This document shows positions 26,042-57,836 of a stretch of DNA of 64,000 nucleotides, piece after piece. A program made the translations under genes and the position numbers. Source of the DNA: Escherichia phage vB_EcoS_HZ_ZJUN2; the sequence record PP216084. One strand, given 5' to 3'. Under the pieces are notes generated by a model that had not been told where the DNA came from, made no database searches, and was given only the letters and a program-made list of their open reading frames with translations. Position 1 is the first letter of the stretch. Each line of letters opens with the position of its first letter.

Positions 26042-26560
26042 GTGAAACCTAAACTAACAAAAGAATTTCTAGAGAAATATCTAGAACTTAGAGAAGATAC
26101 TCTCTATTGGAAGCCAAGAGAGACTAATAAAGGTGGATTTAACACTAGATTTGCGGGAAAACCTGTAGGGGCCGTCAATGGAAATGGCTACCTATGCTTC
26201 CGACTTAATGTGGAAGGTTATAGATGGGAATTAAGAAATCATGTAGTAATCTACTGTCTCTATTATGGGTATTACCCAACTAAGACAGTAGACCACAAAG
26301 ATACAAATAAACTTAATAACCATCCTTTAAATCTACGAGAATCAACCGATGCTGGTAATGCTCAAAATAGGGGAGCCGGTAAGAATAATACCCATGGACA
26401 TAAAAACCTAGAGCCTCTTAGTTCAGGAAACTGGAGGGTTAGGATAACACACAACGGTACTGTTTACAGATCTTCCGCAATGCCTCTAGAAAAAGCTCTA
26501 GAACATAGAGATATTAAACTTAAAGAATTTCATGGCGAATATGCTAACAATGGAGAATAA
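26042..26560 (+). CDS. HNH homing endonuclease (between nrdA and nrdB)
   Basis: GTG start with RBS AAGGAGA; HNH-type motif VDHKDTNKLNNHPLNLRESTDAGNAQN. Confidence 0.7.
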   Translation: MKPKLTKEFLEKYLELREDTLYWKPRETNKGGFNTRFAGKPVGAVNGNGYLCFRLNVEGYRWELRNHVVIYCLYYGYYPTKTVDHKDTNKLNNHPLNLRESTDAGNAQNRGAGKNNTHGHKNLEPLSSGNWRVRITHNGTVYRSSAMPLEKALEHRDIKLKEFHGEYANNGE

Positions 26561-33076: not shown

Positions 33077-33459
33077 TAATTTAAAAGCTAGTAAATCGGT
33101 AGACGAAAGCCCAAGCATCTTACCTCGCAGCAGCGGTTGAAATACGAGGTTAAATAGGACCGCTGACCATACTATAAAGTATAATCTATTGGAGATTATG
33201 TTTATTACACCAGCCTTTTAAGCTGACACGTAAGAACAAAGCGTCGTTGATATTACCGACACAACTTCAAAGATCAACATTTAAGTATGAAAGCTGAAAA
33301 GTTTAAAGAACTCAAACTTCTAAACTTCTAAATCTAAAAGATGCAAAGTATTCGTTGATGATTCAAACCCTAGATCAAAGGTACATGGCTCATAAGATAT
33401 GGCCTGTGGCGCCTCTAGGCTGTTTATCGGTTTACTAGTTTCACAATTTAAAAATGTAT

Positions 33460-33488
33460 TTGCTAATCTACTAAATTATATGTATAAT
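33460..33488 (+). promoter_or_regulatory. sigma70-type early promoter
   Basis: -35 TTGCTA / 17 bp / -10 TATAAT. Confidence 0.55.
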
Positions 33489-33518
33489 ATATTTTTAAAT
33501 TGATGAAACGAGGCTATT

Positions 33519-34342
33519 ATGGGTAAATTACAAAAACAAATACTACCATATATAGATTATATTCGAGAAATTATAGAGTATAATCCTTATACCGGTAAAT
33601 TATTTTATAAGCCTAATAAATACAAGAATAAAACTTGGCACACCCTATATGCTGGGAGAGAGAGATATGTAGTAAGAACTCTGATGGGTATATCAGAGTT
33701 AGTTTGCTCTTAGATAACAAACCCACAATTATTTATGGACACCGAATAGCGTGGTTGCTACATTATGGTGAAGAGCCGCCTCATATGATCGACCATATAA
33801 ATACCATACCGTGGGATAACAGAATTATTAATTTAAGAGAGACAAATTTTAAGTTAAATAGAATTAATACTAATAAAACCATAGGTGTAGAACTCCTCCC
33901 AGAGGGTTTTGTATATAGCATTACATTAGATGGAAAGTTCTTCGTATCTCCTGGCTTCACCACTTTCGAACAAGCTAAAGGGGAAAGAGAAAAACTAGTA
34001 AATGGCTTATGTAACGCAGAAATTGGGAAGCAGACCAATATCCTAATAGACGATGTTAGAAATCTACCTGAAATGTCTATTATTTGTCGTACAGTTGTAT
34101 GTGCGCTAGAATTATCAGACGCGTTTAGTTTCACAGGCTCATACCTATTTATGGACTCAGATCTAGGAGATCCAGAGGTACAAGGAAAAGATTTATTAGA
34201 TCATATACTATTTTTAGGTCAAAGACCTTTAAAAGTGGTTTTAGTAACATCTAACCCCGTTGACGCAGAGTACATGAGAGGTACTCTTACATCTTATGGA
34301 TACAGAGAAAATCCCAATAGATTAGAATATGATCTATTTTAA
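33519..34342 (+). pseudogene. HNH homing endonuclease interrupted by a frameshift
   Basis: ORF 33519-33713 matches the N-terminal module of the paralogs at 4588, 54339 and 57830; ORF 33635-34342 in another frame carries the HNH core HRIAWLLHYGEEPPHMIDHINTIPWDNRIINLRETN. Confidence 0.6.
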
Positions 34343-34354
34343 GGAGTAAAAAGA

Positions 34355-34804
34355 ATGAAGGCAGCTTTGCTTTTAGTAGCTGCCCTTACCGTCAGCTTTA
34401 GTAGTCAGGCATCGCACGATGCAAAAGAAATAGATTGCATTGCTAAAAATATCTATTTCGAAAGTCGTGGTGAGGGCATAAAGGGAATGACGGCGATTGC
34501 ACATGTTACTAAAAACCGTGTAAACTCCGGTAAATTCCCAGATTCCTACTGTAAAGTAGTATATCAGTCTAACCAGTTCTCTTGGGTATCCAAGAGACCA
34601 AAAGTTGATAAAACCGATGAGGCTTGGAAAACCGCCAAGAATTTAGCTAGAGTGATATACTACGTTGATTTACCACAAGATCCTACACATGGGGCTTTAT
34701 ACTTCCATAGCGGTAAAGATAAACCTTACTGGACAAAGAAATTTAAGAAAACAACTAAGATTAAGGGGCATACATTCTATAAACCTGTTGTCACTAAAAC
34801 TTAA
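34355..34804 (+). CDS. secreted SleB-like cell-wall hydrolase (Hydrolase_2-type)
   Basis: Signal peptide MKAALLLVAALTVSFSSQA; motifs NIYFESRGEGIKGMTAIAHVTKNRV and QSNQFSWV typical of SleB-family hydrolases. Confidence 0.6.
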   Translation: MKAALLLVAALTVSFSSQASHDAKEIDCIAKNIYFESRGEGIKGMTAIAHVTKNRVNSGKFPDSYCKVVYQSNQFSWVSKRPKVDKTDEAWKTAKNLARVIYYVDLPQDPTHGALYFHSGKDKPYWTKKFKKTTKIKGHTFYKPVVTKT

Positions 34805-35523: not shown

Positions 35524-35746
35524 ATATTCATAAATTAGGGAACAGCGAGCCGATTACGCTGAATGCAGAATCCCAACCGGAGCGCATTGAATAGAGTCGG
35601 TGGGTTAGTTGTAAAACTAGTACACAGGGGGCGGCAATCCCGGTTAGTGGCTAGAACGTGTAAAATGAGGCGTCTGAAACCTCTCCCCTAAACTCTTCTC
35701 TAATTTATAAATAGTGGGGTGTGGAAATCACTTATGTAGTAACACT

Positions 35747-35818
35747 GCCGATCTAGTATAAACGGTATTATCAAGCCGTAACTGGTGGAAGATGTAGGTT
35801 CGAATCCTACGATCGGTA
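35747..35818 (+). tRNA. tRNA-like element (anticodon not resolved; no encoded CCA)
   Basis: Canonical T-arm GTAGG-TTCGAAT-CCTAC and 7-bp acceptor pairing GCCGATC/GATCGGT; D and anticodon arms could not be folded cleanly by eye. Confidence 0.35.
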
Positions 35819-35857
35819 AGAACTGGATAACTGGTGCTTTTAACGTAAAAGCTTCCG

Positions 35858-35930
35858 AGGTTAGTTGCGCACTGCCTAAACCACGCGGTAGTTGGTTCCA
35901 GACTAACCAACCAGTCTGCTGAATAGTTTT
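35858..35930 (+). terminator. hairpin + T-run (terminator or processing site)
   Basis: GTTGGTT-CCAGACT-AACCAAC hairpin followed by TTTTATT. Confidence 0.3.
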
Positions 35931-36319
35931 ATTACGATTTAACTATGTCCAGGCTAAAGAAGAACTTTAGAAGGTATTCTAGGTAGTGAAGTTTTTCCTC
36001 CATATCGGAGTAGTTTTTCAAGCTACCAACAAAGTGGGAAATGCTGACATGAGAGATGTCACTAATGGTGCACAATAGCACAGGTAATTCGCGATAACTC
36101 CTGTTGAGTAGCAGCAAAAGGCGGGAAGTCATGACCCCAAGCCTAACCGAGTCCTCAATATACCGCAGGACATAACCACTAAGTCACCCTGACTTAAACT
36201 GGAAAATAATAGACGTTACTGTATTTTGTCTTGAAATACTTAATGAGTGAGACTTATGACTCTCCCGGTATCGTCTGTATTTTTAAGAGTTTTTACGAGA
36301 GTTCTTAAAAATACTTAAA

Positions 36320-36391
36320 CGGGGTGTAGTCTAAGGGAGAGGCAGGAGTCTTCTAAATTCCTTTATGCAGGTTCGAATCCTGTCACCTCGG
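36320..36391 (+). tRNA. tRNA-Arg (anticodon UCU), CCA encoded
   Basis: Manual cloverleaf: acceptor CGGGGTG/CACCTCG, D-stem GTCT/AGGC, anticodon stem GGAGT/ATTCC with loop CTTCTAA, T-arm GCAGG-TTCGAAT-CCTGT, then G-CCA. Confidence 0.6.
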
Positions 36392-36428
36392 CCAATTTTA
36401 TTAACTGTAACTAAAACAAAGGAAATAT

Positions 36429-37376
36429 ATGTTTGCTACTAAAAACACTAAAGAACTGACTTATGAGCAAAAATTGATGCGTAATATCAAACGTTGGGGT
36501 ATTGGTGTTGCAGTTGGTTTGGTAGGTTTAGTTCTGGCCCTTAACTCCTATACTGTGGTTCAAGACGGTACTGTTAAAACCCAGACTTTCCTGGGTAAAG
36601 TTGACCCTAGCCCAGTATTACCAGGCTTTCATATTGTAAATCCTTTTGCTTCTTTCGATACTTTTAGTACTAAAGATATTGCTGTAAAATTAGATAAACT
36701 TCAGGTTCCTAGCCAGGATAAGTTTAAATCCACTGTTGACCTGACTGTTATGTTGCAGTTTGATGGTTCTAAGGCACCGATCAACCGTATTAATGCAGGT
36801 ACTCAGGATCAGGCGTTAGACAAATATGTAACTGAAAAATTACTGTCTACCATCCGTGAGTTTGGTAAGTCTGTACCTAAAGCACAAGATTTGTTTGATG
36901 CTAAAATTCAAGCACAATTACAAACTGCAATTCAACAGGAAGTTGAAGAGTATGCACGCCCTTATGGTTACACAGTTAAGCAAGTGTTCCTTCAGGATAT
37001 CACATTACCACCGGTAATTATGGAACAGGTACAGAATACCAAAGTTCGTGAAGAACAAGTTAATGCTGCGAAAGCTGAATTGGCTCGTGTTGAACAAGAA
37101 GCACAGCAGAAGGTTAAACAAGCAGAAGCAGATCGTGAAGCTCGTAACAACCAAGCTATTGCAAACGAACGTGATGCAGATGCTAAACTGTATGCAGCTA
37201 AGAAAGAAGCCGAAGCTAACGCCGCTCTGCAACGTACTATTACTCCTGAGATGATTCGCTGGAAACAACTAGAAGTTGAAATGACTCGTGCTCAGAAGTA
37301 TCAAGGTGGTGTGCCGCAAACAGTAGTTGGCACTGGGTACGATGGCCGGATGATTATGGATATGCGTAACAAGTAA
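36429..37376 (+). CDS. SPFH/band-7 (prohibitin/HflK-like) membrane protein
   Basis: N-terminal TM helix (WGIGVAVGLVGLVLAL), SPFH-like core, long charged coiled-coil C-terminal region (EQEAQQKVKQAEADREARNNQAIANERDADAKLYAAKKEAEANA). Confidence 0.65.
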   Translation: MFATKNTKELTYEQKLMRNIKRWGIGVAVGLVGLVLALNSYTVVQDGTVKTQTFLGKVDPSPVLPGFHIVNPFASFDTFSTKDIAVKLDKLQVPSQDKFKSTVDLTVMLQFDGSKAPINRINAGTQDQALDKYVTEKLLSTIREFGKSVPKAQDLFDAKIQAQLQTAIQQEVEEYARPYGYTVKQVFLQDITLPPVIMEQVQNTKVREEQVNAAKAELARVEQEAQQKVKQAEADREARNNQAIANERDADAKLYAAKKEAEANAALQRTITPEMIRWKQLEVEMTRAQKYQGGVPQTVVGTGYDGRMIMDMRNK

Positions 37377-37400
37377 TTCCCACACGTAATATTCGAAGTA

Positions 37401-37440
37401 AGCCCTGTGTTCCCTGGAGAGCGCAGGGCTTTTCTGTTTT
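37401..37440 (+). terminator. rho-independent terminator
   Basis: AGCCCTG...CGCAGGGCT hairpin + TTTCTGTTTT. Confidence 0.6.
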
Positions 37441-37602
37441 AAGGTAGAGGATAAGTGTGTCTCTTTGGTCACTCAGCTATGACAAATACTTTACACTATA
37501 TCACATTGAAAATCAAGTGGGGATAACAATTTTGGGGTCTATCCACTTACCTGCTACCATTAAGCATCCTGTTATTTTCCTCTAAAAAGTTAAAAAATTC
37601 AA

Positions 37603-37631
37603 TTGCTTGAATGCTAAATTCTCTGTATAAT
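37603..37631 (+). promoter_or_regulatory. sigma70-type early promoter
   Basis: -35 TTGCTT / 17 bp / -10 TATAAT. Confidence 0.55.
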
Positions 37632-37661
37632 ATATTTATAAATTTGAGAGAGGAATCTAGT

Positions 37662-38180
37662 ATGACTGTTGATGAACTAACAGAACATCTCTTATCTAGA
37701 GGGTTTGATACAGATAAGTATCATTGCTGGTTAAGCCAGGAAGGATGGCTAACAGTCCCGTTGTATGACTTCTCTGGGATGTTGAGAGGCTATCAAACTT
37801 ATAATCCTTCTGCTCCAAAAGGTCATGGTAAGTGTCCCTTTGAAGCTAAATATTTTACTTATTCTACTACCCAGTGTGTATGGGGATTAGAAACTCTCAA
37901 TGGAGATGAAAAAGTAGTATTGATTGCTGAATCTGTATTTAAGGCAGTTGCGTTACATAACGCTGGTTATCCAGCCCTGGCAATGTTGGGTTCTTCCCCC
38001 GGAAAAGCATTATTAAAGCAATTGAAATTATTACCTTTTAAATTGGTAGCTGTAGGAGATAATGATCCTGCGGGTGAAAAATTTGCTAGAAAATTAAACG
38101 GCTTTGTTTCTCCTGTAGATGTAGATGAGATGTCTACCGAAAACTTGAAAAATTTTCTTGCTATGAAGCTAAATTTCTAA
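37662..38180 (+). CDS. TOPRIM-domain protein (about 172 aa)
   Basis: Track ORF 37611-38180 trimmed to ATG 37662 downstream of the promoter; TOPRIM-like VVLIAESVFKA...LVAVGDNDPAGEKFA. Confidence 0.55.
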   Translation: MTVDELTEHLLSRGFDTDKYHCWLSQEGWLTVPLYDFSGMLRGYQTYNPSAPKGHGKCPFEAKYFTYSTTQCVWGLETLNGDEKVVLIAESVFKAVALHNAGYPALAMLGSSPGKALLKQLKLLPFKLVAVGDNDPAGEKFARKLNGFVSPVDVDEMSTENLKNFLAMKLNF

Positions 38181-38186
38181 TATAAT
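38158..38186 (+). promoter_or_regulatory. sigma70-type promoter overlapping the 3' end of the TOPRIM gene
   Basis: -35 TTGCTA / 17 bp / -10 TATAAT; drives the two following tRNAs. Confidence 0.5.
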
Positions 38187-38200
38187 ATATTTATAAATTC

Positions 38201-38286
38201 GGAAGAATAGCATAACGGTATTGCAGCAGATTGCTAATCTGTCGGTTTGAAATATAGCCTTGTGGGTTCGATTCCCACTTCTTCCG
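38201..38286 (+). tRNA. tRNA-Ser (anticodon GCU), class II, CCA encoded
   Basis: Acceptor GGAAGAA/TTCTTCC, anticodon stem GCAGA/TCTGT with loop TTGCTAA, long variable arm, T-arm GTGGG-TTCGATT-CCCAC, G-CCA. Confidence 0.65.
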
Positions 38287-38295
38287 CCAAATTCT

Positions 38296-38370
38296 GGTTC
38301 TCAAGCTCATATGGTATGAGCACCCAGCTCATAACTGGAAGGTACGTAGGTTCGAATCCTCGGGGAGCCA
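38296..38370 (+). tRNA. tRNA with anticodon CAU (Met/fMet/Ile2 not distinguished)
   Basis: Acceptor GGTTCTC/GGGAGCC, D-arm GCTC-ATATGGTAT-GAGC, anticodon loop CTCATAA, TTCGAAT T-loop with imperfect T-stem, A-CCA. Confidence 0.5.
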
Positions 38371-38396
38371 CCAACTTAATTAGAAAGTAGTAAACT

Positions 38397-39080
38397 ATGA
38401 GAACTGATATACTCGATAGAAAGGAAGAAATAACTCAGTGGATAGCTCAGGGAAAATCTAAAGCAGAGATAGCAAGAATGCTATCTTGTGCCTCGAATAC
38501 TCTAGAAGCATATTTAGGAAAACTAGGGATAATAATTACTCCTACTAATAGGCAGCAGGATAATAAATATAAGTCTGCAACAGAGTATTTATATAATGGC
38601 AGTCCTATCTCTTCCTATAGACTAAAGAATAAAATTCTTAACGAGGGACTAAAACCACATAAATGTGAGGGTTGCGGACTAGAAAGCTGGTTAAATAAAC
38701 CAATTCCCTTAGAACTCGAGCATAAAGATGGAGACCACTATAATAATGAGTGGGACAACTTAGCCCTCCTATGCCCAAATTGTCATGCACTAACACCTAC
38801 TCATGCAGGCAAAAATATTGGCAGGTATACAGAAAGGGTGGTAAATACATGTGCTATTTGTCATTGCGAAATTAGCCCAAAGGCAACGCACTGTAAATCA
38901 TGTACCCCGAAAGAACTAACTATAAATCCAGATATTACTGCGGAGCAAATAGAGTATTGGGTATCTAAGTATTCCTGGGTTCGTGCCTCCAAAGAATTAG
39001 GATTATCTGACACGGGGTTAAGAAAAAGATATACGTCCTTAACAGGAAAAGATCCTAAAAGTATTAAGAAAAGTAGGTAG
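38397..39080 (+). CDS. HNH endonuclease (227 aa)
   Basis: HNH motif CEGCGLESWLNKPIPLELEHKDGDHYNNEWDNLALLCPNCH; C-terminal tail paralogous to ORF 41268-41849. Confidence 0.7.
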   Translation: MRTDILDRKEEITQWIAQGKSKAEIARMLSCASNTLEAYLGKLGIIITPTNRQQDNKYKSATEYLYNGSPISSYRLKNKILNEGLKPHKCEGCGLESWLNKPIPLELEHKDGDHYNNEWDNLALLCPNCHALTPTHAGKNIGRYTERVVNTCAICHCEISPKATHCKSCTPKELTINPDITAEQIEYWVSKYSWVRASKELGLSDTGLRKRYTSLTGKDPKSIKKSR

Positions 39081-39109
39081 TATAATTAACACCAAATTAA
39101 GGAAATAAG

Positions 39110-39277
39110 ATGTATAGACATCCACCTCCGCCAACACGTCGTTCTAGAGAAGTTATTCTCATGGAATTGACTAAAAACTTCAAGGCAACTCTTGAAGATA
39201 GAGATCTAGGCACGGATGAAGATATTGATTTTATTTGTAGACTATTAAAGATGAAACTGGAGAAACAACATGGCTAA
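39110..39277 (+). CDS. small hypothetical protein (about 55 aa)
   Basis: ATG with RBS AAGGAAATAAG; below ORF-track cutoff. Confidence 0.35.
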   Translation: MYRHPPPPTRRSREVILMELTKNFKATLEDRDLGTDEDIDFICRLLKMKLEKQHG

Positions 39278-39476
39278 TCCTGAAATTACCGCACAACGTT
39301 TCATGCTTAAAGGCATGATTGCTGAGGCAGGTATAACTCAAGAGGTTGCAGATTTTCATAAGCAATTTCTTGACATTATAACTCTAGCTAAAGAGACTGG
39401 AGAAAAAGAACACGGTGCAGCAATTATGGCTATAACTCTTATTAGTCTAGACTTGGCAGAAGAATCTGGAGTTTAG
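39270..39476 (+). CDS. hypothetical protein (68 aa)
   Basis: ORF track. Confidence 0.45.
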   Translation: MANPEITAQRFMLKGMIAEAGITQEVADFHKQFLDIITLAKETGEKEHGAAIMAITLISLDLAEESGV

Positions 39477-39506
39477 CTCCTCCGAACAGAATTTTTAAAA
39501 ATGTAC

Positions 39507-39536
39507 TTGCCTTTTGCTTTAAATTTCTGGTATAAT
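39507..39536 (+). promoter_or_regulatory. sigma70-type early promoter
   Basis: -35 TTGCCT / 18 bp / -10 TATAAT. Confidence 0.5.
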
Positions 39537-39566
39537 AGTTATATAAATTGATGAAGGAGTTAACGA

Positions 39567-39842
39567 ATGCAAAATCGTGTTATAGCAACTGGTATTGAAA
39601 GTGCAATCTGTAAATCCTGGGAAGGCTGGGAAGGTGAGATTGAATGGCTTTATTTCTACGATGTAGAACTTCTGCCGGAAATTAAAGCTAAATGTGTTGA
39701 AGCTGGCATGGCTCCAGATGCAAAAGCTGATATTGATATTTCAATGTCTGAACTTAAAGGTCGTGTAATTACTGTTAGTGATGGGGGCGAAGAAGTTTTC
39801 GAACTTCCATTCTCCTTAACTGTCGCTCCTAAGTTCGACTAA
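39567..39842 (+). CDS. hypothetical protein (91 aa)
   Basis: ORF track; RBS GAAGGAG. Confidence 0.5.
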   Translation: MQNRVIATGIESAICKSWEGWEGEIEWLYFYDVELLPEIKAKCVEAGMAPDAKADIDISMSELKGRVITVSDGGEEVFELPFSLTVAPKFD

Positions 39843-39878
39843 CTAATACAGCACTGAGCAAGTTCTTTAAAATTTGAC

Positions 39879-39907
39879 TTGCTCAGTGCCTTAAAACTTG
39901 GTATAAT
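39879..39907 (+). promoter_or_regulatory. sigma70-type promoter embedded in an inverted repeat
   Basis: -35 TTGCTC / 17 bp / -10 TATAAT; the -35 lies in the 3' arm of hairpin GCACTGAGCAAG...CTTGCTCAGTGC (39851-39890). Confidence 0.5.
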
Positions 39908-40041
39908 AGTTATCTAATTTGGAAAGTTCTTTTTAAGGTAGTTCTTACTTTAGCAGAGTAAACTTTCGGCAGATGGCGGCAGCCACTTTACCGATATTCC
40001 ATAGTCAGTGCCGCAAACACTGGCTACCTTAAAGAGAATTT

Positions 40042-40126
40042 GGGCGTTTATTCCGTAAGTGGTAGCGGAGGGGAATGTAAATCCCTGGTCATTGCGACTC
40101 GAGTGGTTCGACTCCATTAACGCCCA
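40042..40126 (+). tRNA. tRNA-Tyr (anticodon GUA), class II, CCA encoded
   Basis: Acceptor GGGCGTT/AACGCCC, anticodon stem GGGGA/TCCCT with loop ATGTAAA, long variable arm, T-arm GTGG-TTCGACT-CCAT, A-CCA. Confidence 0.6.
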
Positions 40127-40137
40127 CCAAATTTAAT

Positions 40138-40209
40138 GCACCTATCGTCTAATGGTTAGGACATCAGGATTTCAATCTGAGAATCGGAGTTCAATTCTCC
40201 GTGGGTGTA
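40138..40209 (+). tRNA. tRNA-Glu (anticodon UUC), CCA encoded
   Basis: Anticodon stem TCAGG/TCTGA with loop ATTTCAA, T-arm CGGAG-TTCAATT-CTCCG, acceptor GCACCTA/TGGGTGT. Confidence 0.55.
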
Positions 40210-40220
40210 CCAATTTCTGC

Positions 40221-40294
40221 ATTCCTAGAGTGTTACTGGACAGCATGTCGGTCTCCAAAACCGTACGGTCTAGGTTCGAGTCCTAGTAGGTTTG
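40221..40294 (+). tRNA. tRNA-Trp (anticodon CCA), tentative
   Basis: D-stem TGTT/AGCA, anticodon loop CTCCAAA, T-arm CTAGG-TTCGAGT-CCTAG, G-CCA; acceptor stem has two mismatches. Confidence 0.45.
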
Positions 40295-40303
40295 CCAAAA
40301 TTT

Positions 40304-40375
40304 GCACCTTTAGCTGAGATGGATTAGCGCTTGCCTGAAGAGCTTGAAAGGTTGGATCGTTACCAACGGGGTGCA
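40304..40375 (+). tRNA. tRNA (anticodon uncertain, possibly CUG)
   Basis: Acceptor GCACCTT/GGGGTGC with A-CCA, T-stem GTTGG/CCAAC with unusual T-loop ATCGTTA. Confidence 0.4.
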
Positions 40376-40395
40376 CCAAATTGAAGGAGCTGCTG

Positions 40396-40668
40396 ATGCA
40401 TCCTGAAAACTTCTTTATTTACTGCGCGGATAAGTCGCTGAAACGTAGAATTAACAAAGTCTATCATTATCGTGCTAGTCAACAGCCTTATGTATACGCT
40501 TTTGACGGTGATCACATTCCACTAGAACAATTATCTTGTGATTACATGATATTGAAGAACTTTGACGAGACGAAGATCTCAAGCGTTTATAATCGACAGA
40601 ATCCATTAACGTGGAAATATAAGAAGAAAAAGAAAGGCATCAAATTCTTAAAAAATATAGTTGCTTAG
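40396..40668 (+). CDS. hypothetical protein (about 90 aa)
   Basis: Track ORF 40381-40668; likely start ATG 40396 after RBS GAAGGAG. Confidence 0.45.
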   Translation: MHPENFFIYCADKSLKRRINKVYHYRASQQPYVYAFDGDHIPLEQLSCDYMILKNFDETKISSVYNRQNPLTWKYKKKKKGIKFLKNIVA

Positions 40669-40689
40669 TTTCCAAAAGTTCTGTATAAT
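40661..40689 (+). promoter_or_regulatory. sigma70-type promoter driving tRNAs
   Basis: -35 TTGCTT / 17 bp / -10 TATAAT; -35 overlaps the stop region of ORF 40396-40668. Confidence 0.5.
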
Positions 40690-40737
40690 AATTACATAAA
40701 TTGAACTGGAGAAGCAACATGATAGAACAAGATAAAT

Positions 40738-40810
40738 CGACCGTTGGCTGAATGGCTTAGGCGAAGGATTGCAAATCCTTTTTATGTGAGTTCAAATCTC
40801 ATGCGGTCGT
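40738..40810 (+). tRNA. tRNA-Cys (anticodon GCA), CCA encoded
   Basis: Acceptor CGACCGT/GCGGTCG, anticodon stem AAGGA/TCCTT with loop TTGCAAA, T-arm GTGAG-TTCAAAT-CTCAT, T-CCA. Confidence 0.65.
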
Positions 40811-40815
40811 CCAAT

Positions 40816-40956
40816 TTGCTGAAAGAATTGTTAAATCAATTCAGGCACGCGTAGGAACACTGTCTCCGTAATTGAAAGATGAGGCACGGTTTGGAGAGGT
40901 ATGCCGCTACACGCTACGGTGCTAACTCCGTCTAGGTGAAAATCCTAGTCAGCAAT
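40816..40956 (+). ncRNA. ~141-nt tRNA-like structured RNA candidate
   Basis: Perfect 7-bp terminal pairing TTGCTGA/TCAGCAA, T-arm-like hairpin CTAGG-TGAAAAT-CCTAG at the 3' side, internal hairpin GAATTG-TTAAAT-CAATTC; too long for a tRNA. Confidence 0.3.
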
Positions 40957-40965
40957 GTAAATTTA

Positions 40966-41048
40966 GGGTCGTTGGCTGAACGGTTTAAGCGCCGGACTGT
41001 TAATCCGTATCCGCAAGGATAAAGTAGGTTCAACTCCTACACGGCCCG
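40966..41048 (+). tRNA. class II (long variable arm) tRNA with anticodon GUU (Asn-type anticodon on a Ser/Tyr-type body)
   Basis: Acceptor GGGTCGT/ACGGCCC, Ser-like D-arm TG-GCT-GAACGGTTTAA-AGC, anticodon stem CCGGA/TCCGT with loop CTGTTAA, variable arm ATCC-GCAA-GGAT, T-arm GTAGG-TTCAACT-CCTAC, discriminator G, CCA. Confidence 0.5.
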
Positions 41049-41078
41049 CCAAATTCACTAACAACTGAGGAAATAGAT

Positions 41079-41264
41079 ATGACAACTCGTGCAATTGCTC
41101 GACTAGAAGCTGATCGTGATAATATGATTAATAATATTAAGGTTCGTGGTAATATTATTAAGGCTCTGAAAGCTGAACTTCTTGAGGAACTTCAAGGTCA
41201 AGTAGAGCGTCGTGAAGCTCTAAAAGAGGTTGAGGAAGCTATCGAAAAACTCAAGGCTGAATAA
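41079..41264 (+). CDS. small coiled-coil hypothetical protein (61 aa)
   Basis: ORF track; RBS GAGGAAATAG. Confidence 0.45.
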   Translation: MTTRAIARLEADRDNMINNIKVRGNIIKALKAELLEELQGQVERREALKEVEEAIEKLKAE

Positions 41265-41267
41265 ATT

Positions 41268-41849
41268 ATGCACGGAATATCCTTACCCATTCCAGGGTTT
41301 GAGGAGTACTTAGTAAGTTTGGATGGGTTAGTATTTAGTATCAAATCAAACAAAATACTAACCCCAATAACCAGTAATTACGGATACTTATCTATACGTC
41401 TCCATAAAAATGGTCAACAGAGAAATACCGGTGTACATAGGATTTTAGCATGTGCATTTAAGAAATTACCAAGTCTAGACTCTGAACTAGAAGTTGACCA
41501 TATTAACACAGACATTACTTATTGGGGTCTTAATAACTTACAAGTGCTCACAAAAGAGCAGCATCTAGAAAAGACTTTAAAAGATAAAGGATTTAGTAAA
41601 CTAAACCATGATAATTGTTGTAAGGATTGTGGTAAAGCTATTTCTTTAAAAGCTGAAAAATGTCAGGAGTGCTCTTCACATAAACCAAAAGATATCTCTA
41701 TAACTAAAGAAATAATCGAGGTTACAGTAAGAGAGCTAGGCTGGTCAGGTGCAGGGAGAAAGTTAAGTTATTCAGATAATGGGTTGCGTAAAAGATACAC
41801 TTCTTTAGGAGGCAATCCTAAAGAACTTAAAAAGTTAAAGGTACTATAG
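41268..41849 (+). CDS. HNH endonuclease (193 aa)
   Basis: HNH motif LEVDHINTDITYWGLNNLQVLTKEQH with Cys cluster CCKDCGK...CQEC; stop codon lies inside the 5' acceptor stem of the following tRNA-Asp. Confidence 0.7.
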   Translation: MHGISLPIPGFEEYLVSLDGLVFSIKSNKILTPITSNYGYLSIRLHKNGQQRNTGVHRILACAFKKLPSLDSELEVDHINTDITYWGLNNLQVLTKEQHLEKTLKDKGFSKLNHDNCCKDCGKAISLKAEKCQECSSHKPKDISITKEIIEVTVRELGWSGAGRKLSYSDNGLRKRYTSLGGNPKELKKLKVL

Positions 41850-41911
41850 TCTAACGGTTAGGATACTCCCCTGTCACGGGAGAGGTAGGGTTTCGATTAC
41901 CCTTAGTACCG
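41840..41911 (+). tRNA. tRNA-Asp (anticodon GUC), CCA encoded
   Basis: Acceptor GGTACTA/TAGTACC, anticodon stem CTCCC/GGGAG with loop CTGTCAC, T-arm GTAGG-GTTTCGATTA-CCCTT region, G-CCA. Confidence 0.65.
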
Positions 41912-41931
41912 CCAAATAAGGTAGGTTAGCT

Positions 41932-42090
41932 ATGGAACGTAGGGAGTTTACTCCAGAAGAGATAGAGCAGATAAAAGAATCTGCTATGAAAAATGCTAGA
42001 ATATCTCTGTCACTGGAAGGTATCATTATTAGTGATGTAAACTTTGAAAAAATCAAAGCCATAGCTGATGAACTGGAAAAAGTAATTTAA
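41932..42090 (+). CDS. small hypothetical protein (about 52 aa)
   Basis: ATG with RBS AAGGTAGG; below ORF-track cutoff; sits between two tRNAs. Confidence 0.35.
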   Translation: MERREFTPEEIEQIKESAMKNARISLSLEGIIISDVNFEKIKAIADELEKVI

Positions 42091-42091
42091 T

Positions 42092-42164
42092 ACATCCATA
42101 GCTCAATGGTTAGAGCTACCGCCTCTTAAGCGGAGGGTTCTAGGTTCAAGTCCTAGTGGGTGTA
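42092..42164 (+). tRNA. tRNA-Lys (anticodon CUU), tentative
   Basis: D-arm GCTC-AATGGTTAG-AGC, anticodon stem CCGC/GCGG with loop CTCTTAA, T-arm CTAGG-TTCAAGT-CCTAG, A-CCA. Confidence 0.5.
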
Positions 42165-42193
42165 CCAAATTAAACTAGCACGAGAAATATGCT

Positions 42194-42541
42194 ATGATTA
42201 ATGCTAAAGAAGAATTGTTACTTGCCCTAAAGAATACTAATTCTGAAGTTAAGTGTATTAAGATAGAATTCGGTTATTATGGGGATAAAGAAGTTTGGGT
42301 ATTACCCGTAGGTTATACAGAAAAAGATATTGAAGATTTTCTAAATAATCTAGACTTTAAATATGATTCTGGTTATGGTGGGCAATTGCTTTATGGTAAC
42401 GTGTGGTTTACTGATGGAACTTGGTTAGAACGCGGTGAATACGACGGTTCTGAATGGTGGGAATATAAGGCTACGCCAGCAATCCCAGAAGAATGCCGAA
42501 CAATTAATGGTGAAGTAGATCATACATTACTACTAAATTAA
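42194..42541 (+). CDS. hypothetical protein (115 aa)
   Basis: ORF track. Confidence 0.5.
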   Translation: MINAKEELLLALKNTNSEVKCIKIEFGYYGDKEVWVLPVGYTEKDIEDFLNNLDFKYDSGYGGQLLYGNVWFTDGTWLERGEYDGSEWWEYKATPAIPEECRTINGEVDHTLLLN

Positions 42542-42551
42542 TAAAAATTAA

Positions 42552-42625
42552 CAGTGCGTAGCTCAGCTTGGTAGAGCGTCTGCTTTGGGAGCAGAATGTC
42601 GCAGGTTCGAGTCCTGCCGCACTGA
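42552..42625 (+). tRNA. tRNA-Pro (anticodon UGG), CCA encoded
   Basis: Acceptor CAGTGCG/CGCACTG, D-arm GCTC-AGCTTGGTAG-AGC, anticodon stem TCTGC/GCAGA with loop TTTGGGA, T-arm GCAGG-TTCGAGT-CCTGC, A-CCA. Confidence 0.7.
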
Positions 42626-42634
42626 CCAAACAAT

Positions 42635-42707
42635 TGCGGGTGGGAGGCATAGAGTTCTTCTTAGTCTCATAAGCTAAGTAAGTCCAGGGCAGTACTGGAA
42701 CCCGCTA
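42635..42707 (+). tRNA. tRNA with anticodon CAU and non-canonical T-loop
   Basis: Correct cloverleaf spacing; anticodon stem TTAGT/GCTAA with loop CTCATAA; T-stem TCCAG/CTGGA but T-loop GGCAGTA instead of TTCRANY; A-CCA. Confidence 0.45.
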
Positions 42708-42727
42708 CCAATTTCAAGAAAAACTCA

Positions 42728-42756
42728 TTTGCTTAATGCTTAATTTCTTGTTATAA
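42728..42756 (+). promoter_or_regulatory. sigma70-type promoter driving an untranslated RNA
   Basis: -35 TTGCTT / 17 bp / -10 TATAAT; downstream ~320 nt lack any ORF of 60 aa or more before tRNA-Ala. Confidence 0.5.
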
Positions 42757-42764
42757 TATTTATA

Positions 42765-43089
42765 TAAATTGATGCGAAAATAGCTGCCTAGATACCAGGT
42801 GTATGACGTCTACACTAGCAGAGCTACCGAAAAAGAGATCCTCAGGATAAACGTCGTAGCAAAATTAGTCTGGTATCCATCAATTTAGTTCACTAAGGTA
42901 TTAGCTCGACCTAGGACTGGCTGCCAAAAAGCACGATCCCTACGACTTGGGAGAAGTTCTAGATTAGTCCACTAGATTCAGCGGCAACTGAATAGTGTAT
43001 TGGGTTTGCGAGATGACGCGGTTCCTTCCGCTCGAAGCGAAGGTGCTGTAGTTACGCCGAGCTAATAGCCTTAGTAAACTAAAGAATTT
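42765..43089 (+). ncRNA. candidate structured non-coding RNA (~320 nt) co-transcribed with tRNAs
   Basis: Promoter-proximal, no plausible ORF, several complementary segments (e.g. GATACCAGG / CTGGTATC; AGCTGCCTAG / CTAGGACTGGCTGCC). Confidence 0.3.
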
Positions 43090-43160
43090 GGGGATATAGT
43101 TTAATGGTAGAACATCTGCTTTGCACGCAGAAGACGAGGGTTCAACTCCCTCTTTCTCCA
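43090..43160 (+). tRNA. tRNA-Ala (anticodon UGC), CCA encoded
   Basis: Anticodon stem TCTGC/GCAGA with loop TTTGCAC, T-arm GAGGG-TTCAACT-CCCTC, A-CCA. Confidence 0.6.
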
Positions 43161-43168
43161 CCAAATTC

Positions 43169-43250
43169 GGGGCTATGCTGGAACTGGTAGACAATACGGC
43201 CTTAGATTCCGTAGCTTAAATGCGTGGGAGTTCGAGTCTCCCTAGCCCCA
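43169..43250 (+). tRNA. tRNA-Leu (anticodon UAG), class II, CCA encoded
   Basis: Acceptor GGGGCTA/TAGCCCC, anticodon stem ACGG/CCGT with loop CTTAGAT, long variable arm, T-arm GGGAG-TTCGAGT-CTCCC, A-CCA. Confidence 0.55.
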
Positions 43251-43377
43251 CCAAATTTGATGGTCAGAGTAAATTAAACCTACTATCTCGGTTGAGCTGT
43301 TTTAATGGGTTCGAATCCCAGCGAGGCGTAACTGCCTGGTGTGATAGAGGCATCATTCCACTAATATTGGAAAACTA

Positions 43378-43608
43378 ATGAAACGAGAATTAAAAAAATC
43401 TTATATAATTAAGATAAATAAGCTAAGAAGTAGGGCAAAAGGATGGCCACTTCGGATATTAATTGCGGATAACCATATTAGATACCATGCGGAACAACGT
43501 CATTATAAACAGTGGGAGTCATACTGCCGCTCAAAAGCAGGTCGTTTAGATGGATCTTATGAGTTTCTATTTGGTAAGAAGCCTACTAGAGTAGCTTTAG
43601 GTAATTAA
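43378..43608 (+). CDS. hypothetical protein (76 aa)
   Basis: ORF track. Confidence 0.45.
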   Translation: MKRELKKSYIIKINKLRSRAKGWPLRILIADNHIRYHAEQRHYKQWESYCRSKAGRLDGSYEFLFGKKPTRVALGN

Positions 43609-43613
43609 TACTT

Positions 43614-43701
43614 GGAAGAGCAAATCGAATTGGCGACGAAAACCGCTTGGAAAGTGGCTGACTGGTAAAACGGCTTGAGAGTTCAAATCTCTCCTCTTCC
43701 G
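43614..43701 (+). tRNA. tRNA-Ser (anticodon GGA, tentative), class II, CCA encoded
   Basis: Acceptor GGAAGAG/CTCTTCC, anticodon loop TTGGAAA, long variable arm, T-arm GAGAG-TTCAAAT-CTCTC, G-CCA. Confidence 0.55.
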
Positions 43702-43711
43702 CCAAACAAAT

Positions 43712-43798
43712 AGAAGGTAGGGCGTAGTGGTACGCAACTAGTCTTGAAAACTAGCCCGCTGTAGTGATACGGTGATGGTTCGACTCCATTACCTTCTG
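43712..43798 (+). tRNA. tRNA-Ser (anticodon UGA), class II, CCA encoded
   Basis: Acceptor AGAAGGT/ACCTTCT, anticodon stem CTAGT/ACTAG with loop CTTGAAA, long variable arm, T-arm with TTCGACT loop, G-CCA. Confidence 0.6.
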
Positions 43799-43817
43799 CC
43801 AACTTATAAGGTAATAT

Positions 43818-44000
43818 ATGTCTTTAACGAAAACTGTGAAGGTTACACTAACTGATGGCACAGAGTTTAGTGCACAAGTAACCTTACTAGAAGACGGTTA
43901 TTGGGAAGTATATCTTCCACACGTTAATTCTACTGGTAGAGGATGGACTCAACAACAGGCTATTGTTGATGCTTTAAATGAGGCTTCTGCTGGTTTATAA
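43818..44000 (+). CDS. hypothetical protein (60 aa)
   Basis: ORF track. Confidence 0.45.
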   Translation: MSLTKTVKVTLTDGTEFSAQVTLLEDGYWEVYLPHVNSTGRGWTQQQAIVDALNEASAGL

Positions 44001-44008
44001 AAATTCTT

Positions 44009-44106
44009 GGAATATGCCGGAATTGGTAGACGGGACTGCCGAATAGGTTTACTAGGAACATCCACTCCTAGAAATATACCTTAAAAGCGGTTGAGTTAAA
44101 TGGTCT
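44009..44106 (+). ncRNA. irregular tRNA-like element (Leu-like D-arm plus T-arm, about 45 nt too long)
   Basis: D-arm CCGG-AATTGGTAGA-CGGG resembling bacterial tRNA-Leu, T-arm GAAGG-TTCAAGT-CCTTC, acceptor-like pairing GGAATA/TATTCC, but extra hairpins lie between D- and T-arms. Confidence 0.3.
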
Positions 44107-44367
44107 AACTCATGAAGGTTCAAGTCCTTCTATTCCTTGATACATCAATGGCTCAAAGTGTAACGGTGCTATTTGATGCTCTTGGCAAGACTTCCCCGAC
44201 ATGCGTTCGGGAGTAAGCTGCTAAGACTAGAATAGAAGAGTTTCTGAGAGCCGCCACAATTGAAAATTCGTACTCGTCTTGAGCTGCGTGCAATAGGAGA
44301 TAACTTGATTAGTATTCTAGAACATGCTAATTGAGGAAGGTTTCGCTAACCCTGCGAGTTTTCAATT

Positions 44368-44441
44368 GTGGCTATATCATAATTGGTTAATGATCCTGAT
44401 TGTGAATCAGGCCTATGTGGATTCGAATTCCACTAGCCACC
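44368..44441 (+). tRNA. tRNA-His (anticodon GUG), CCA encoded
   Basis: Acceptor GTGGCTA/TAGCCAC, anticodon stem CCTGA/TCAGG with loop TTGTGAA, T-arm GTGGA-TTCGAAT-TCCAC, C-CCA. Confidence 0.65.
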
Positions 44442-44469
44442 CCAAATTAACTTAAATAGGAAATAAAAT

Positions 44470-44664
44470 ATGGCTGATTTCTGCAAACAATGCTCCATTG
44501 ATATGTGGGGTAAAGATACTGGTGACTTAGCTGGTCTGATTACAGAAGCCGAAGTCAAAGAAGGTTATGGTGCAGTTGTGGTTTGCGAAGGATGCGGAGT
44601 CATTCGAGTAGATCATGAAGGCAAACGTTTGGAAGAATCTGAGCCAACAACAATTTTTCCGTAG
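44470..44664 (+). CDS. small Cys-rich hypothetical protein (64 aa)
   Basis: ORF track; RBS AGGAAATAAAAT; CxxC...CxxC pattern. Confidence 0.5.
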   Translation: MADFCKQCSIDMWGKDTGDLAGLITEAEVKEGYGAVVVCEGCGVIRVDHEGKRLEESEPTTIFP

Positions 44665-44677
44665 AGTAAAGAATTAT

Positions 44678-44750
44678 TGGGATGTAGATCAATTGGCAGA
44701 TCGTCGGCCTCTGACTCCGAAGGTTCCACGTTCGATCCGTGGCATCCCAG
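44678..44750 (+). tRNA. tRNA-Gln (anticodon CUG), CCA encoded
   Basis: Acceptor TGGGATG/CATCCCA, anticodon loop CTCTGAC, T-arm CCACG-TTCGATC-CGTGG, G-CCA. Confidence 0.6.
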
Positions 44751-44759
44751 CCAAATTAT

Positions 44760-44832
44760 TGGAGAGTAGTGTAACGGTTAGCACAACGGCCTTTGACTCC
44801 GTTAATGGTAGGTTCGATTCCTCCTTCTCCAG
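44760..44832 (+). tRNA. tRNA-Gln (anticodon UUG), CCA encoded
   Basis: Acceptor TGGAGAG/TTCTCCA, anticodon loop CTTTGAC, TTCGATT T-loop, G-CCA. Confidence 0.55.
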
Positions 44833-44842
44833 CCAAATTAAT

Positions 44843-44914
44843 GCGTGATTAGTTCAGTGGCTAGAATAACTGGCTTCCAACCAGTAGACACGAGTTCGAC
44901 TCTCGTATCCCGCA
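44843..44914 (+). tRNA. tRNA-Gly (anticodon UCC), CCA encoded
   Basis: Anticodon stem ACTGG/CCAGT with loop CTTCCAA, T-arm ACGAG-TTCGACT-CTCGT, A-CCA. Confidence 0.6.
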
Positions 44915-44931
44915 CCAAATAAGGAATCTCT

Positions 44932-45153
44932 ATGCACGTTTTTGAGTTTCGTAATAAAAGTACCAATAAACGAGTTATTGTTATTGGGGAAACATATCGA
45001 GCATATGAACAAACTGACGGCTCTGTTATCTTGAATGATGAGAAAGGGGGTTTTAGCTTTTATCCAGAAGAAACATATGAAGAGTTTCGTACCAAGTTTC
45101 TTTTACCAGACTGGCTAGCAGTAGCCGAGCAACGAGAATCCGAAGATGGCTGA
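44932..45153 (+). CDS. hypothetical protein (73 aa)
   Basis: ORF track; RBS AAGGAATC. Confidence 0.5.
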   Translation: MHVFEFRNKSTNKRVIVIGETYRAYEQTDGSVILNDEKGGFSFYPEETYEEFRTKFLLPDWLAVAEQRESEDG

Positions 45154-45211
45154 TAACCTAAAATTAAGGGTTGACAAACAAAAGAAATCCCATTGAAATA
45201 ATGGGATTATC

Positions 45212-45283
45212 GCTCCTAAAGCATTGTTGGCGATGCAGTTGCCTTGTAAGCATCTGAGCTGGGTTCGATTCCTAGTGGGAGCA
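45212..45283 (+). tRNA. tRNA-Thr (anticodon UGU), CCA encoded
   Basis: Acceptor GCTCCTA/TGGGAGC, D-stem GCAT/ATGC, anticodon loop CTTGTAA, T-arm CTGGG-TTCGATT-CCTAG, A-CCA. Confidence 0.55.
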
Positions 45284-45301
45284 CCAAATTTAAAAATTCA
45301 T

Positions 45302-45330
45302 TTGCTTTCTCTCTTATTTATTGTTATAAT
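45302..45330 (+). promoter_or_regulatory. sigma70-type early promoter
   Basis: -35 TTGCTT / 17 bp / -10 TATAAT + leader ATTTACATAAATTAATGAGAGGGAAACC. Confidence 0.55.
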
Positions 45331-45360
45331 ATTTACATAAATTAATGAGAGGGAAACCAA

Positions 45361-45651
45361 ATGAAACGTTATCTTTCTGTTATGTTCCAAACCGGCGGCC
45401 AAAGATACACCTATGAATTTCCACCTTCCTGGAAAATCAGGGAAGGTGATCAAGTAGTTGTGTTAACACCGCGTGAAGAATATAAAGTAGTGACGGTTAA
45501 ACAAGTATTTCCAAAAGATCATGAACCAGCTATAGGCATCCGATATAAGATGATTCATGGCGTGGTTCGTCAAGTACCACGAACTGAGGTAGAAGTAGAT
45601 AATACTGGAGAAACTAAATTCCATTATACTTCTCACTTAGACAGTGTGTGA
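45361..45651 (+). CDS. hypothetical protein (96 aa)
   Basis: ORF track. Confidence 0.5.
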   Translation: MKRYLSVMFQTGGQRYTYEFPPSWKIREGDQVVVLTPREEYKVVTVKQVFPKDHEPAIGIRYKMIHGVVRQVPRTEVEVDNTGETKFHYTSHLDSV

Positions 45652-45666
45652 TGTAAATATTTTAAT

Positions 45667-45740
45667 GCTTCGGTAGCTTAGCGATCTAAAGCACTCGGCT
45701 GATAACCGAGAGATCGGGGGTTTAAATCCCTCCCGAAGTA
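45667..45740 (+). tRNA. tRNA-Ile (anticodon GAU), CCA encoded
   Basis: Acceptor GCTTCGG/CCGAAGT, anticodon stem CTCGG/CCGAG with loop CTGATAA, T-arm GGGGG-TTTAAAT-CCCTC, A-CCA. Confidence 0.65.
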
Positions 45741-45837
45741 CCAAATCTAGGAATTAAGACTATGCGTCCAGGAAAGTTTAAAAAAGCTAGTTGGTCCAAA
45801 GAGTACAAAGAATACTTACTTAGCCTAGTAAAACGTA

Positions 45838-45910
45838 ATAGTTAGTTGGCAGAGTGGTTATGCACCTCCTTCATACGGAGCGACTACAGTGGTTCAAATC
45901 CACTACTAAC
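45838..45910 (+). tRNA. tRNA-Met-type (anticodon CAU), CCA encoded
   Basis: Acceptor AGTTAGT/ACTAACT, anticodon loop TTCATAC, T-arm AGTGG-TTCAAAT-CCACT, A-CCA; a 27-codon mini-ORF (45762-45841) ends inside its 5' end. Confidence 0.6.
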
Positions 45911-45928
45911 TACCAAACAGGAGATCTA

Positions 45929-53913: not shown

Positions 53914-54342
53914 ATGTCTGATCGTTTCTATACTCAAATGGCGGAACATTTTCGTATACCACATTACGAGCTAAACATTGCACTCCGTGACCATGACTCT
54001 CCTGAGTACAAAAAGCTCGAAAAGAAGGCGGAAAAATCTATTGATACAAAGGTAGGTGCACCTATGTCTAAGGGCAAAAAGTTAACTCGTCTTGATCTTA
54101 ATAAAATTTTAACTGAACTTTTGGGTACTGATATTGAAGGTGCTAAATTACCACTTCTTGTACTAGAGACTATGATTAAAAAGGTCAAAAATAAAGAATA
54201 TAAGAAGGTAGAAGTCCCAGAAGGCAGATTAAAGGCTCCGTATCAGGAAGCATTAACCGAGTGTTTGGGTGTAAATCTTGATCTGAGCACCGCAACTGTT
54301 AAGTGCATGAAAAACTTCTTAGAAGCTATTAATAAACTATGA
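53914..54342 (+). CDS. hypothetical protein (142 aa)
   Basis: ORF track; RBS AGAGAGG. Confidence 0.5.
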   Translation: MSDRFYTQMAEHFRIPHYELNIALRDHDSPEYKKLEKKAEKSIDTKVGAPMSKGKKLTRLDLNKILTELLGTDIEGAKLPLLVLETMIKKVKNKEYKKVEVPEGRLKAPYQEALTECLGVNLDLSTATVKCMKNFLEAINKL

Positions 54343-54866
54343 TTACACAGGATACTCTTAAACAGATGTTCAATTACGACCCTGAAACGGGAATCTTTAC
54401 ATGGAAAGTAAGTAGAGGACCGAAAAAGAAGGGCGATATAGCAGGAACACTCACCAAAGATGGATACATTAGAATAACCATTAATAAACGCCCTTATTAT
54501 GCGCAGCAATTAGCATGTCTATACATGACTGGAGAATGGCCAGAGCATGAGATGGACCATGAAAATCGCATAACCTATGATAATAGGTGGTGTAATATTC
54601 GTAATGCTACTAAACAGGAAAATCTAAGAAATAGGAAGGCATGGGGTAAATCCGGCTATTTAGGAGTTTCATGGAATCGAGGTAAGTGGCAAGTCTACGT
54701 CGTGAACTCAAATGGAGAAAGTATATCCGGCGGGCGTTTTGAACATAAAGATTTAGAATTGGCAGTTAAATCAGCCAATACTTTAAGAGCAAAATTGCAC
54801 GGGGAACGTGCAATTTTTGAAGAATTTACAGGATATATACCTGATATTGGAGAGTTAAATAAATGA
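54339..54866 (+). CDS. HNH homing endonuclease
   Basis: N-terminal module FNYDPETGIFTWKVSRG and HNH core DHENRITYDNRWCNIRNAT; paralog of 4588, 33519 and 57830. Confidence 0.75.
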   Translation: MITQDTLKQMFNYDPETGIFTWKVSRGPKKKGDIAGTLTKDGYIRITINKRPYYAQQLACLYMTGEWPEHEMDHENRITYDNRWCNIRNATKQENLRNRKAWGKSGYLGVSWNRGKWQVYVVNSNGESISGGRFEHKDLELAVKSANTLRAKLHGERAIFEEFTGYIPDIGELNK

Positions 54867-57557: not shown

Positions 57558-57836
57558 ATGGAAAACATGACTAAAGACTTCGACGCCTCTAACCTTACTA
57601 AGACTGAGATGGCCAATGTATTAGCAATTCTCCTCGATATGCAAGGATTTGAGGGGCAACTGATGAAAATGTCTATTCCAGCGATGAAGAAGATGTACGA
57701 TTCCCTTAACAAGAACGCAATGGCCTTTAACCTGGCAAAACAAGAGGCACGCTTTGCTAAAGAGCACCAAGCAGTGGCAGAACGCCGAGCAGCTAGCTTT
57801 GAGCGTGAAGTTAAGCAATTGAAGAAAAAATGCTAA
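57558..57836 (+). CDS. hypothetical protein (about 92 aa)
   Basis: Track ORF 57540 trimmed to ATG 57558 with RBS GAGAGAGGAA. Confidence 0.5.
   Translation: MENMTKDFDASNLTKTEMANVLAILLDMQGFEGQLMKMSIPAMKKMYDSLNKNAMAFNLAKQEARFAKEHQAVAERRAASFEREVKQLKKKC

Follow-up and report, generated by a model that had tools for sequence, protein, structure and literature searches.

A predicted endonuclease gene in Escherichia phage vB_EcoS_HZ_ZJUN2 lies in two reading frames, which raises the question of whether the break is a genuine mutation, an error of sequencing or assembly, or a site of recoding. The gene was analysed within a 64,000-nucleotide stretch of sequence record PP216084 (the window). The phage is T5-like and belongs to the Demerecviridae; the complete genomes nearest to it, that of Escherichia phage HildyBeyeler among them, share about 96% identity over 24 kb. 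An earlier note, based on the letters of the sequence, described two pieces of one endonuclease lying in different frames and overlapping by about 80 nt. Both open reading frames (ORFs) indeed exist, they share 79 nt, and the 64-aa and 235-aa products both match a single family of 273-aa proteins. The coordinates of these and the other features are collected in Table 1.

Table 1. Positions of the disrupted gene, its flanks and its paralogues in the window.
Feature	Position	Strand	Size, basis or remark
Putative sigma-70-like promoter	33460-33488	+	TTGCTA, 17 nt, TATAAT; consensus scan, 10/12 matches
5' fragment	33519-33713	+	64 aa, ATG start; 48 native HNH-module codons, then 16 out-of-frame codons, TAG 33711-33713
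3' part of the gene	33632-34342 (ORF 33635-34342, 235 aa)	+	-1 frame; rest of HNH_3 (catalytic D-H...N...N motif) and cREC_REC
(GA)5 run with 2-nt insertion	33656-33665	+	Alignment with relatives; repeat census of the window
185-aa ORF from internal ATG 33785	33785-34342	+	Identical to GenBank WVX92510.1
cREC_REC domain (cyclic-phosphate processing receiver)	34037-34291	+	aa 173-257 of the repaired protein; Pfam PF20274
Downstream flank: RBS and SleB-like cell-wall hydrolase gene (34355-34804)	34343-34804	+	Alignment; cREC-only homology restarts exactly here
Intact free-standing HNH_3 paralogue	4588-5121	-	23-33% identity to this gene (range of the four)
Intact free-standing HNH_3 paralogue	26042-26560	+	23-33% identity to this gene (range of the four)
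Intact free-standing HNH_3 paralogue	54339-54866	+	23-33% identity to this gene (range of the four)
Intact free-standing HNH_3 paralogue	57830-58366	+	23-33% identity to this gene (range of the four)

When the HildyBeyeler orthologue was searched against the window (tblastn), residues 1-48 matched in one frame with 100% identity and residues 41-273 in the other with 91.8%. BLASTP with the repaired product gave E values of 3e-31 and 4e-172, far past chance. Positions 33519-34342 are thus one gene in two frames, with an intact form of 273 aa. The 3' part carries no further lesion and is 92-98% identical to intact orthologues. In GenBank, the 64-aa fragment (WVX92509.1 of vB_EcoS_HZ_ZJUN2, identical) and the 185-aa product WVX92510.1 are entered as adjacent genes of one NCBI contig of 110,208 bp, both labelled hypothetical proteins; for annotation, the two are better read as one disrupted gene, or as one 273-aa gene if the additional GA described below is erroneous.

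The lesion was pinpointed by alignment with SelmaRatti, RUS_R2 and Kenya-K38, and the comparison was extended to 14 fetched relatives. From position 33654 the window reads GGGAGAGAGAGATATG, which contains a (GA)5 run; Kenya-K38 and Kenya-K44 have (GA)4 at this point, and the other 12 relatives have (GA)3 followed by AA. An uninterrupted 822-nt ORF for 273 aa is present in all 14, and deletion of one GA from the window run brings the 273-aa ORF back. In the 39-member protein cluster to which the gene belongs, all members listed are 273 aa long except the vB_EcoS_HZ_ZJUN2 fragment. The extra GA therefore sits where the indel had been expected (near 33655-33670), although the guide proposed for finding it, the intact paralogues in the window, proved too distant for the purpose, and it is the orthologues of other phages that fix its place. 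The (GA)5 run is the longest dinucleotide repeat of the window, in which only four runs reach at least 4 units. The form with the added GA is absent from IMG/VR, the JGI metagenomes and the GTDB genomes and occurs in a single GenBank assembly (vB_EcoS_HZ_ZJUN2); the in-frame form was found on two IMG/VR contigs and one metagenome contig. A phase-variable contingency repeat was considered and rejected: the run is just 5 units long, and (GA)3 versus (GA)4 in the relatives reflects a synonymous GAA/GAG substitution, not a change in length.

The 235-aa ORF matches Pfam HNH_3 with an E value of 1.8e-11 and 43.9 bits (cut-off 24.8), and the HNH motif in the window is encoded solely in the -1 frame. 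Residues D91, H92, N100, N104, N113 and N116 are invariant across the orthologues and four window paralogues, and an I-HmuI-like HNH_3 module spans aa 1 to about 170, where it is fused in frame to a cREC_REC domain. The description of 33635-34342 as an HNH core thus holds for the HNH_3 part but not for the last ~100 codons, which encode cREC_REC, so that the gene is not one for an endonuclease alone. The count of three intact paralogues in the window also needed correction, as four were found, all of them distant; the N-terminal ~170 aa align with these free-standing HNH_3 ORFs over their full length. On these sequence grounds, the module is a predicted homing endonuclease. Like free-standing HNH_3/AP2-type phage homing endonucleases related to I-HmuI, it has an HNH_3 domain with the invariant D-H...N...N residues, an N-terminal "EY-P-TG" region common to the four window paralogues, and presence/absence polymorphism among near-identical phages. 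Unlike them, it lacks a terminator codon: the frame continues into cREC_REC, and the promoter, RBS and ATG are those of the resident gene. No AP2 domain was detected by Pfam in this protein; two paralogues show weak AP2 matches below the cut-off. The four window HNH_3 ORFs adjoin core genes (primase/helicase, nrdA/nrdB and others), and at the corresponding places in HildyBeyeler the nuclease genes are different or absent, with weak matches only.

In an AlphaFold model of P0001, an intact orthologue, only aa 10-110 are predicted with confidence. The cREC half is poorly modelled (mean pLDDT 57.6, with values of 24-50 across much of aa 160-235), and only the fold match of the HNH part was therefore used. 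The sole significant PDB fold match of the model was the HNH homing endonuclease I-HmuI (1u3e; E 5.7e-4 at a threshold of 1e-3), and a sequence search of the PDB returned no significant match. Three strands and a helix are modelled at aa 119-164, at a pLDDT below 55.

The C-terminal domain matches PF20274 with an E value of 7.6e-13 and 49.4 bits (cut-off 27), and its acidic motifs, ILIDD and MDSDLG, have ILIDD and MDNDLA as their counterparts in a shorter, cREC-only protein of T5-like phages. The cRec domain is a predicted cADP-ribose or 2',3'-cyclic-phosphate phosphoesterase (PMC7824862). The T5-like cREC-only gene (105 aa, PHROG 1479) resembles the window allele in slot, flanks, domain and acidic motifs, at about 52% amino acid identity, and differs from it in that the window allele carries a 170-aa N-terminal nuclease module and the frameshift. 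In a search of 1.84 billion representative proteins, no other protein among the best 150 matches matched both halves, and the nine two-stretch matches scanned among those 150 were tandem HNH_3 proteins; among the matches listed, an E value below 1e-30 was reached by the family's own cluster only. Since the HNH and cREC parts share one reading frame, the frameshift also removes the cREC domain, which is not a selfish element.

How the fused gene relates to the short one can be seen from its distribution. Among 443 matching phage records, 414 carry the 105-aa cREC-only gene and 28 the fused form, in the same slot. Identity is bimodal: the 28 records at 90% or above all have the HNH module, and the 414 below 60% are cREC-only (about 52% in every listed row). 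Homology between fused and cREC-only loci is perfect through the start codon (33519-33521) and resumes at the RBS of the gene for the downstream SleB-like hydrolase; between these two points, the encoded proteins are only ~52% identical. The flank containing the promoter is identical in cREC-only loci. HNH-cREC is thus a whole-ORF allelic cassette that takes the place of the resident cREC-only gene. The simple insertion of a nuclease gene into a resident cREC gene was rejected, given that the cREC part is just ~52% identical to the short allele and that there are no intermediates.

The window flanks are 97-100% identical to those of cREC-only phages versus 82-99% to those of other cassette carriers, the window SleB-like hydrolase protein is 100% identical to that on contigs with the cREC-only allele, and the cassette is found in both Tequintavirus and Epseptimavirus records. 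As its flanks are closer to cREC-only phages than to other carriers, the cassette moves separately from the sequence around it, a pattern that fits exchange driven by nucleases (PMC10448857).

Further nuclease genes were observed around this slot. In Salmonella phage 1586 (PP438655), an extra free-standing HNH endonuclease gene lies in the intergenic region directly upstream of the HNH-cREC gene (L009:1152-1664), which suggests that nuclease genes also land in the promoter region of the slot. In SelmaRatti, another putative homing endonuclease gene is located just downstream of the hydrolase gene (L001:3015-3704); neither the window nor RUS_R2 carries it there. The promoter-like site of the window is also overlapped by a 34-aa ORF (33399-33503), which some relatives list as a hypothetical protein (e.g., L002:1600-1704) and which is probably not a real gene.

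The orthologues in the BASEL phages SelmaRatti and HildyBeyeler are annotated as "intein-containing", and the gene does share features with inteins, namely an in-frame extra segment relative to a shorter allele and a nuclease of the homing-endonuclease type. Unlike inteins, the annotated segment (K3 to Q171) neither opens with Cys, Ser or Thr nor closes with His-Asn: it starts at Lys3 and ends at Lys170-Gln171, and only the +1 residue (Thr172) fits the junction rules. No Hint, splicing or intein family was found in the Pfam search at E<=1. The 169 aa of the segment align along their length with free-standing HNH paralogues, leaving no room for a splicing domain, and the flanking "extein" is so different from the short allele that it points to a cassette swap, not an insertion. 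The intein reading was therefore rejected, the grounds being the missing Hint domain, the wrong junction residues, a segment fully explained by HNH architecture, and I-HmuI as the only fold match. "HNH endonuclease fused to a cREC domain" would be a better label for the orthologues in the two BASEL phages.

Selection on the fused protein bears on the age of the break. Compared pair by pair with its relatives, the repaired window gene shows a dN/dS of 0.03-0.15 both in the HNH part and in the cREC part, and a 76%-identical variant (P0002) is also intact; together, these observations indicate that selection has maintained the fusion as a working protein. Only seven substitutions are private to the window copy, five synonymous and two non-synonymous, with no stop in the remaining 225 codons and no second lesion. 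With so few private changes and a downstream frame that is still open, the break is either very recent or not real. Whether disrupted or mis-assembled, this gene of a narrowly distributed HNH-cREC cassette represents a familiar type of event in a familiar type of element.

Between these two possibilities, we lean, with some reserve, towards a real mutation, produced by slippage, that very recently inactivated this copy of a mobile endonuclease cassette. From the sequence we infer a biological insertion, slippage as its cause and a null product. One GA unit would have joined a (GA)4 run at codons 47-49 through slipped-strand mispairing during replication; translation would then stop after 64 aa, and the nuclease active site and the cREC domain would be absent or made in traces only. 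Such an allele may represent the first step of homing-endonuclease decay, with the cREC domain knocked out as well on account of the fusion. Frameshifted homing-endonuclease genes are common among phage isolates, and decay by frameshift is typical of the class (PMC10448857). Across the window, about 85 HildyBeyeler coding sequences were matched with no other split between frames, and ORFs of 797-929 aa are intact. The assembly is thus not generally indel-prone, which mildly favours a real mutation, and the gene hit by the sole frame break is selfish and probably dispensable, as would be expected of a real mutation that survived more than of an error striking at random. Counting against a real mutation is the presence of a cREC gene in 443 phage records, such that its loss might be costly. 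The contrary account, in which the phage truly has (GA)4 and an intact 273-aa gene and the GA arose from library PCR, base-calling or consensus polishing, is the less likely of the two but retains substantial weight. The inserted form is a singleton in one record, missing from the other collections searched, and the longest dinucleotide repeat of the window is the likeliest place for slippage in vitro or during assembly, as it is in vivo. An artefact would also leave what is observed, i.e., no second lesion and a substitution pattern still like that of a selected gene. Moreover, record PV785641, from the same phage group, has two 1-nt deletions in its cREC-only gene, an example of errors or lesions here being deposited. 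The matched genes without a frame split speak against an artefact, however, as does the dispensable nature of the gene that was hit, and sequencing platforms do not typically add 2 nt to a run as short as 4-5 units. A real mutation would make the phage a ready-made natural knock-out with which to ask whether the widespread, uncharacterised cREC gene of T5-like phages is dispensable.

Other readings would have the cell make use of the broken gene. A programmed frameshift had been raised in the earlier note, along with the idea of looking for a conserved slippery site in related phages. The locus does resemble programmed -1 sites of phages, such as those of the tail chaperone G/GT type, in that two ORFs overlap, the second of them being in the -1 frame, and that a hairpin follows soon after the putative shift region. 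It differs from them in lacking a slippery heptamer (no X_XXY_YYZ anywhere in 33519-33711) and a conserved two-frame layout, and its hairpin seems poorly conserved; the relatives have (GA)3-4 and are in frame in 14 of 14 cases, with nothing kept as a shift site. The 10-bp hairpin (33677-33700) starts 11 nt after the GA run in a region whose folding is only modestly better than that of shuffled sequence (z of -2.16; matched or exceeded by 5 of 200 shuffles), and it lies in conserved coding sequence (NSDGYIRV), where the SelmaRatti-type sequences, which are the majority, have a mismatch that breaks its pairing. A programmed -1 frameshift was accordingly rejected as very unlikely. Recoding of a looser kind, by a -1/+2 shift within the GA run that yields the full-length protein, is highly improbable as well. 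A tRNA-Arg(UCU) could, for example, move from AGA 33657-33659 to AGA 33659-33661; a +2 move of this kind on AGA-GA-GA keeps the pairing perfectly cognate, and the product, with ...GREICSK..., would be identical to wild type. A tRNA-Arg(UCU) gene is present in the phage itself (36320-36394), and the hairpin might help. The missing heptamer, the in-frame relatives and the mismatch in the hairpin tell against this possibility too, and we know of no established mechanism for efficient +2 shifts in E. coli phages.

Partial rescue has only a small probability. Here, translation would restart at TTG 33704 or ATG 33785 after the TAG and give a truncated protein with a working cREC domain and no nuclease activity. 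In favour, the TTG precedes the stop by 5 nt, the restart frame holds an intact cREC domain, and the 185-aa ORF was called by the GenBank annotators. ATG 33785, however, is 72 nt beyond the stop, and there is no Shine-Dalgarno sequence at a useful spacing, the sole such element being GGTGA, 13 nt before ATG 33785; in view of the lack of a usable internal start before the cREC domain, translation of the 185-aa ORF is doubtful. Finally, there is a slight chance that HNH-cREC is a selected two-domain protein and not a passive parasite, in which case the window phage would be a natural double knock-out or would make some full-length protein via +2 re-pairing. A homing nuclease permanently wired to a domain predicted to process cADP-ribose or cyclic phosphates would account for purifying selection as strong as that seen on the two halves over a divergence of 24%.

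Several minor observations concern other genes in the window and in related phages. The cREC-only gene noted above in PV785641 (Salmonella phage MET_P1-197_41, partial, 41.7 kb; L019:1192-1510) is annotated as a 29-aa ORF; its deletions, of 1 nt each, change CCCCA to CCCC and CTCTTA to CTCTA, and the gene is either an assembly error or another disrupted cREC allele. Apparent in-frame stops were met elsewhere in the window: the gene for a Clp-like protease (52100) ends 3 codons before its HildyBeyeler counterpart and a 155-aa hypothetical gene (59958) 2 codons before. These reflect natural variation in stop position and are not lesions. ARAGORN predicts a tRNA-Ser with anticodon ACT at 35746-35819, where HildyBeyeler has no annotated tRNA; the site overlaps the match to a small hypothetical HildyBeyeler coding sequence (locus 36508-36645, corresponding to window 35785-35919) and, placed at the margin of the cluster of 21 tRNA genes (35746-45915), is probably a doubtful tRNA prediction. 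The NAD-dependent DNA ligase is encoded on the minus strand by two ORFs, 7436-8212 and 8418-9386, separated by a gap of about 200 nt; the two are annotated as A and B subunits in HildyBeyeler, and the arrangement is a conserved split gene of this phage group.
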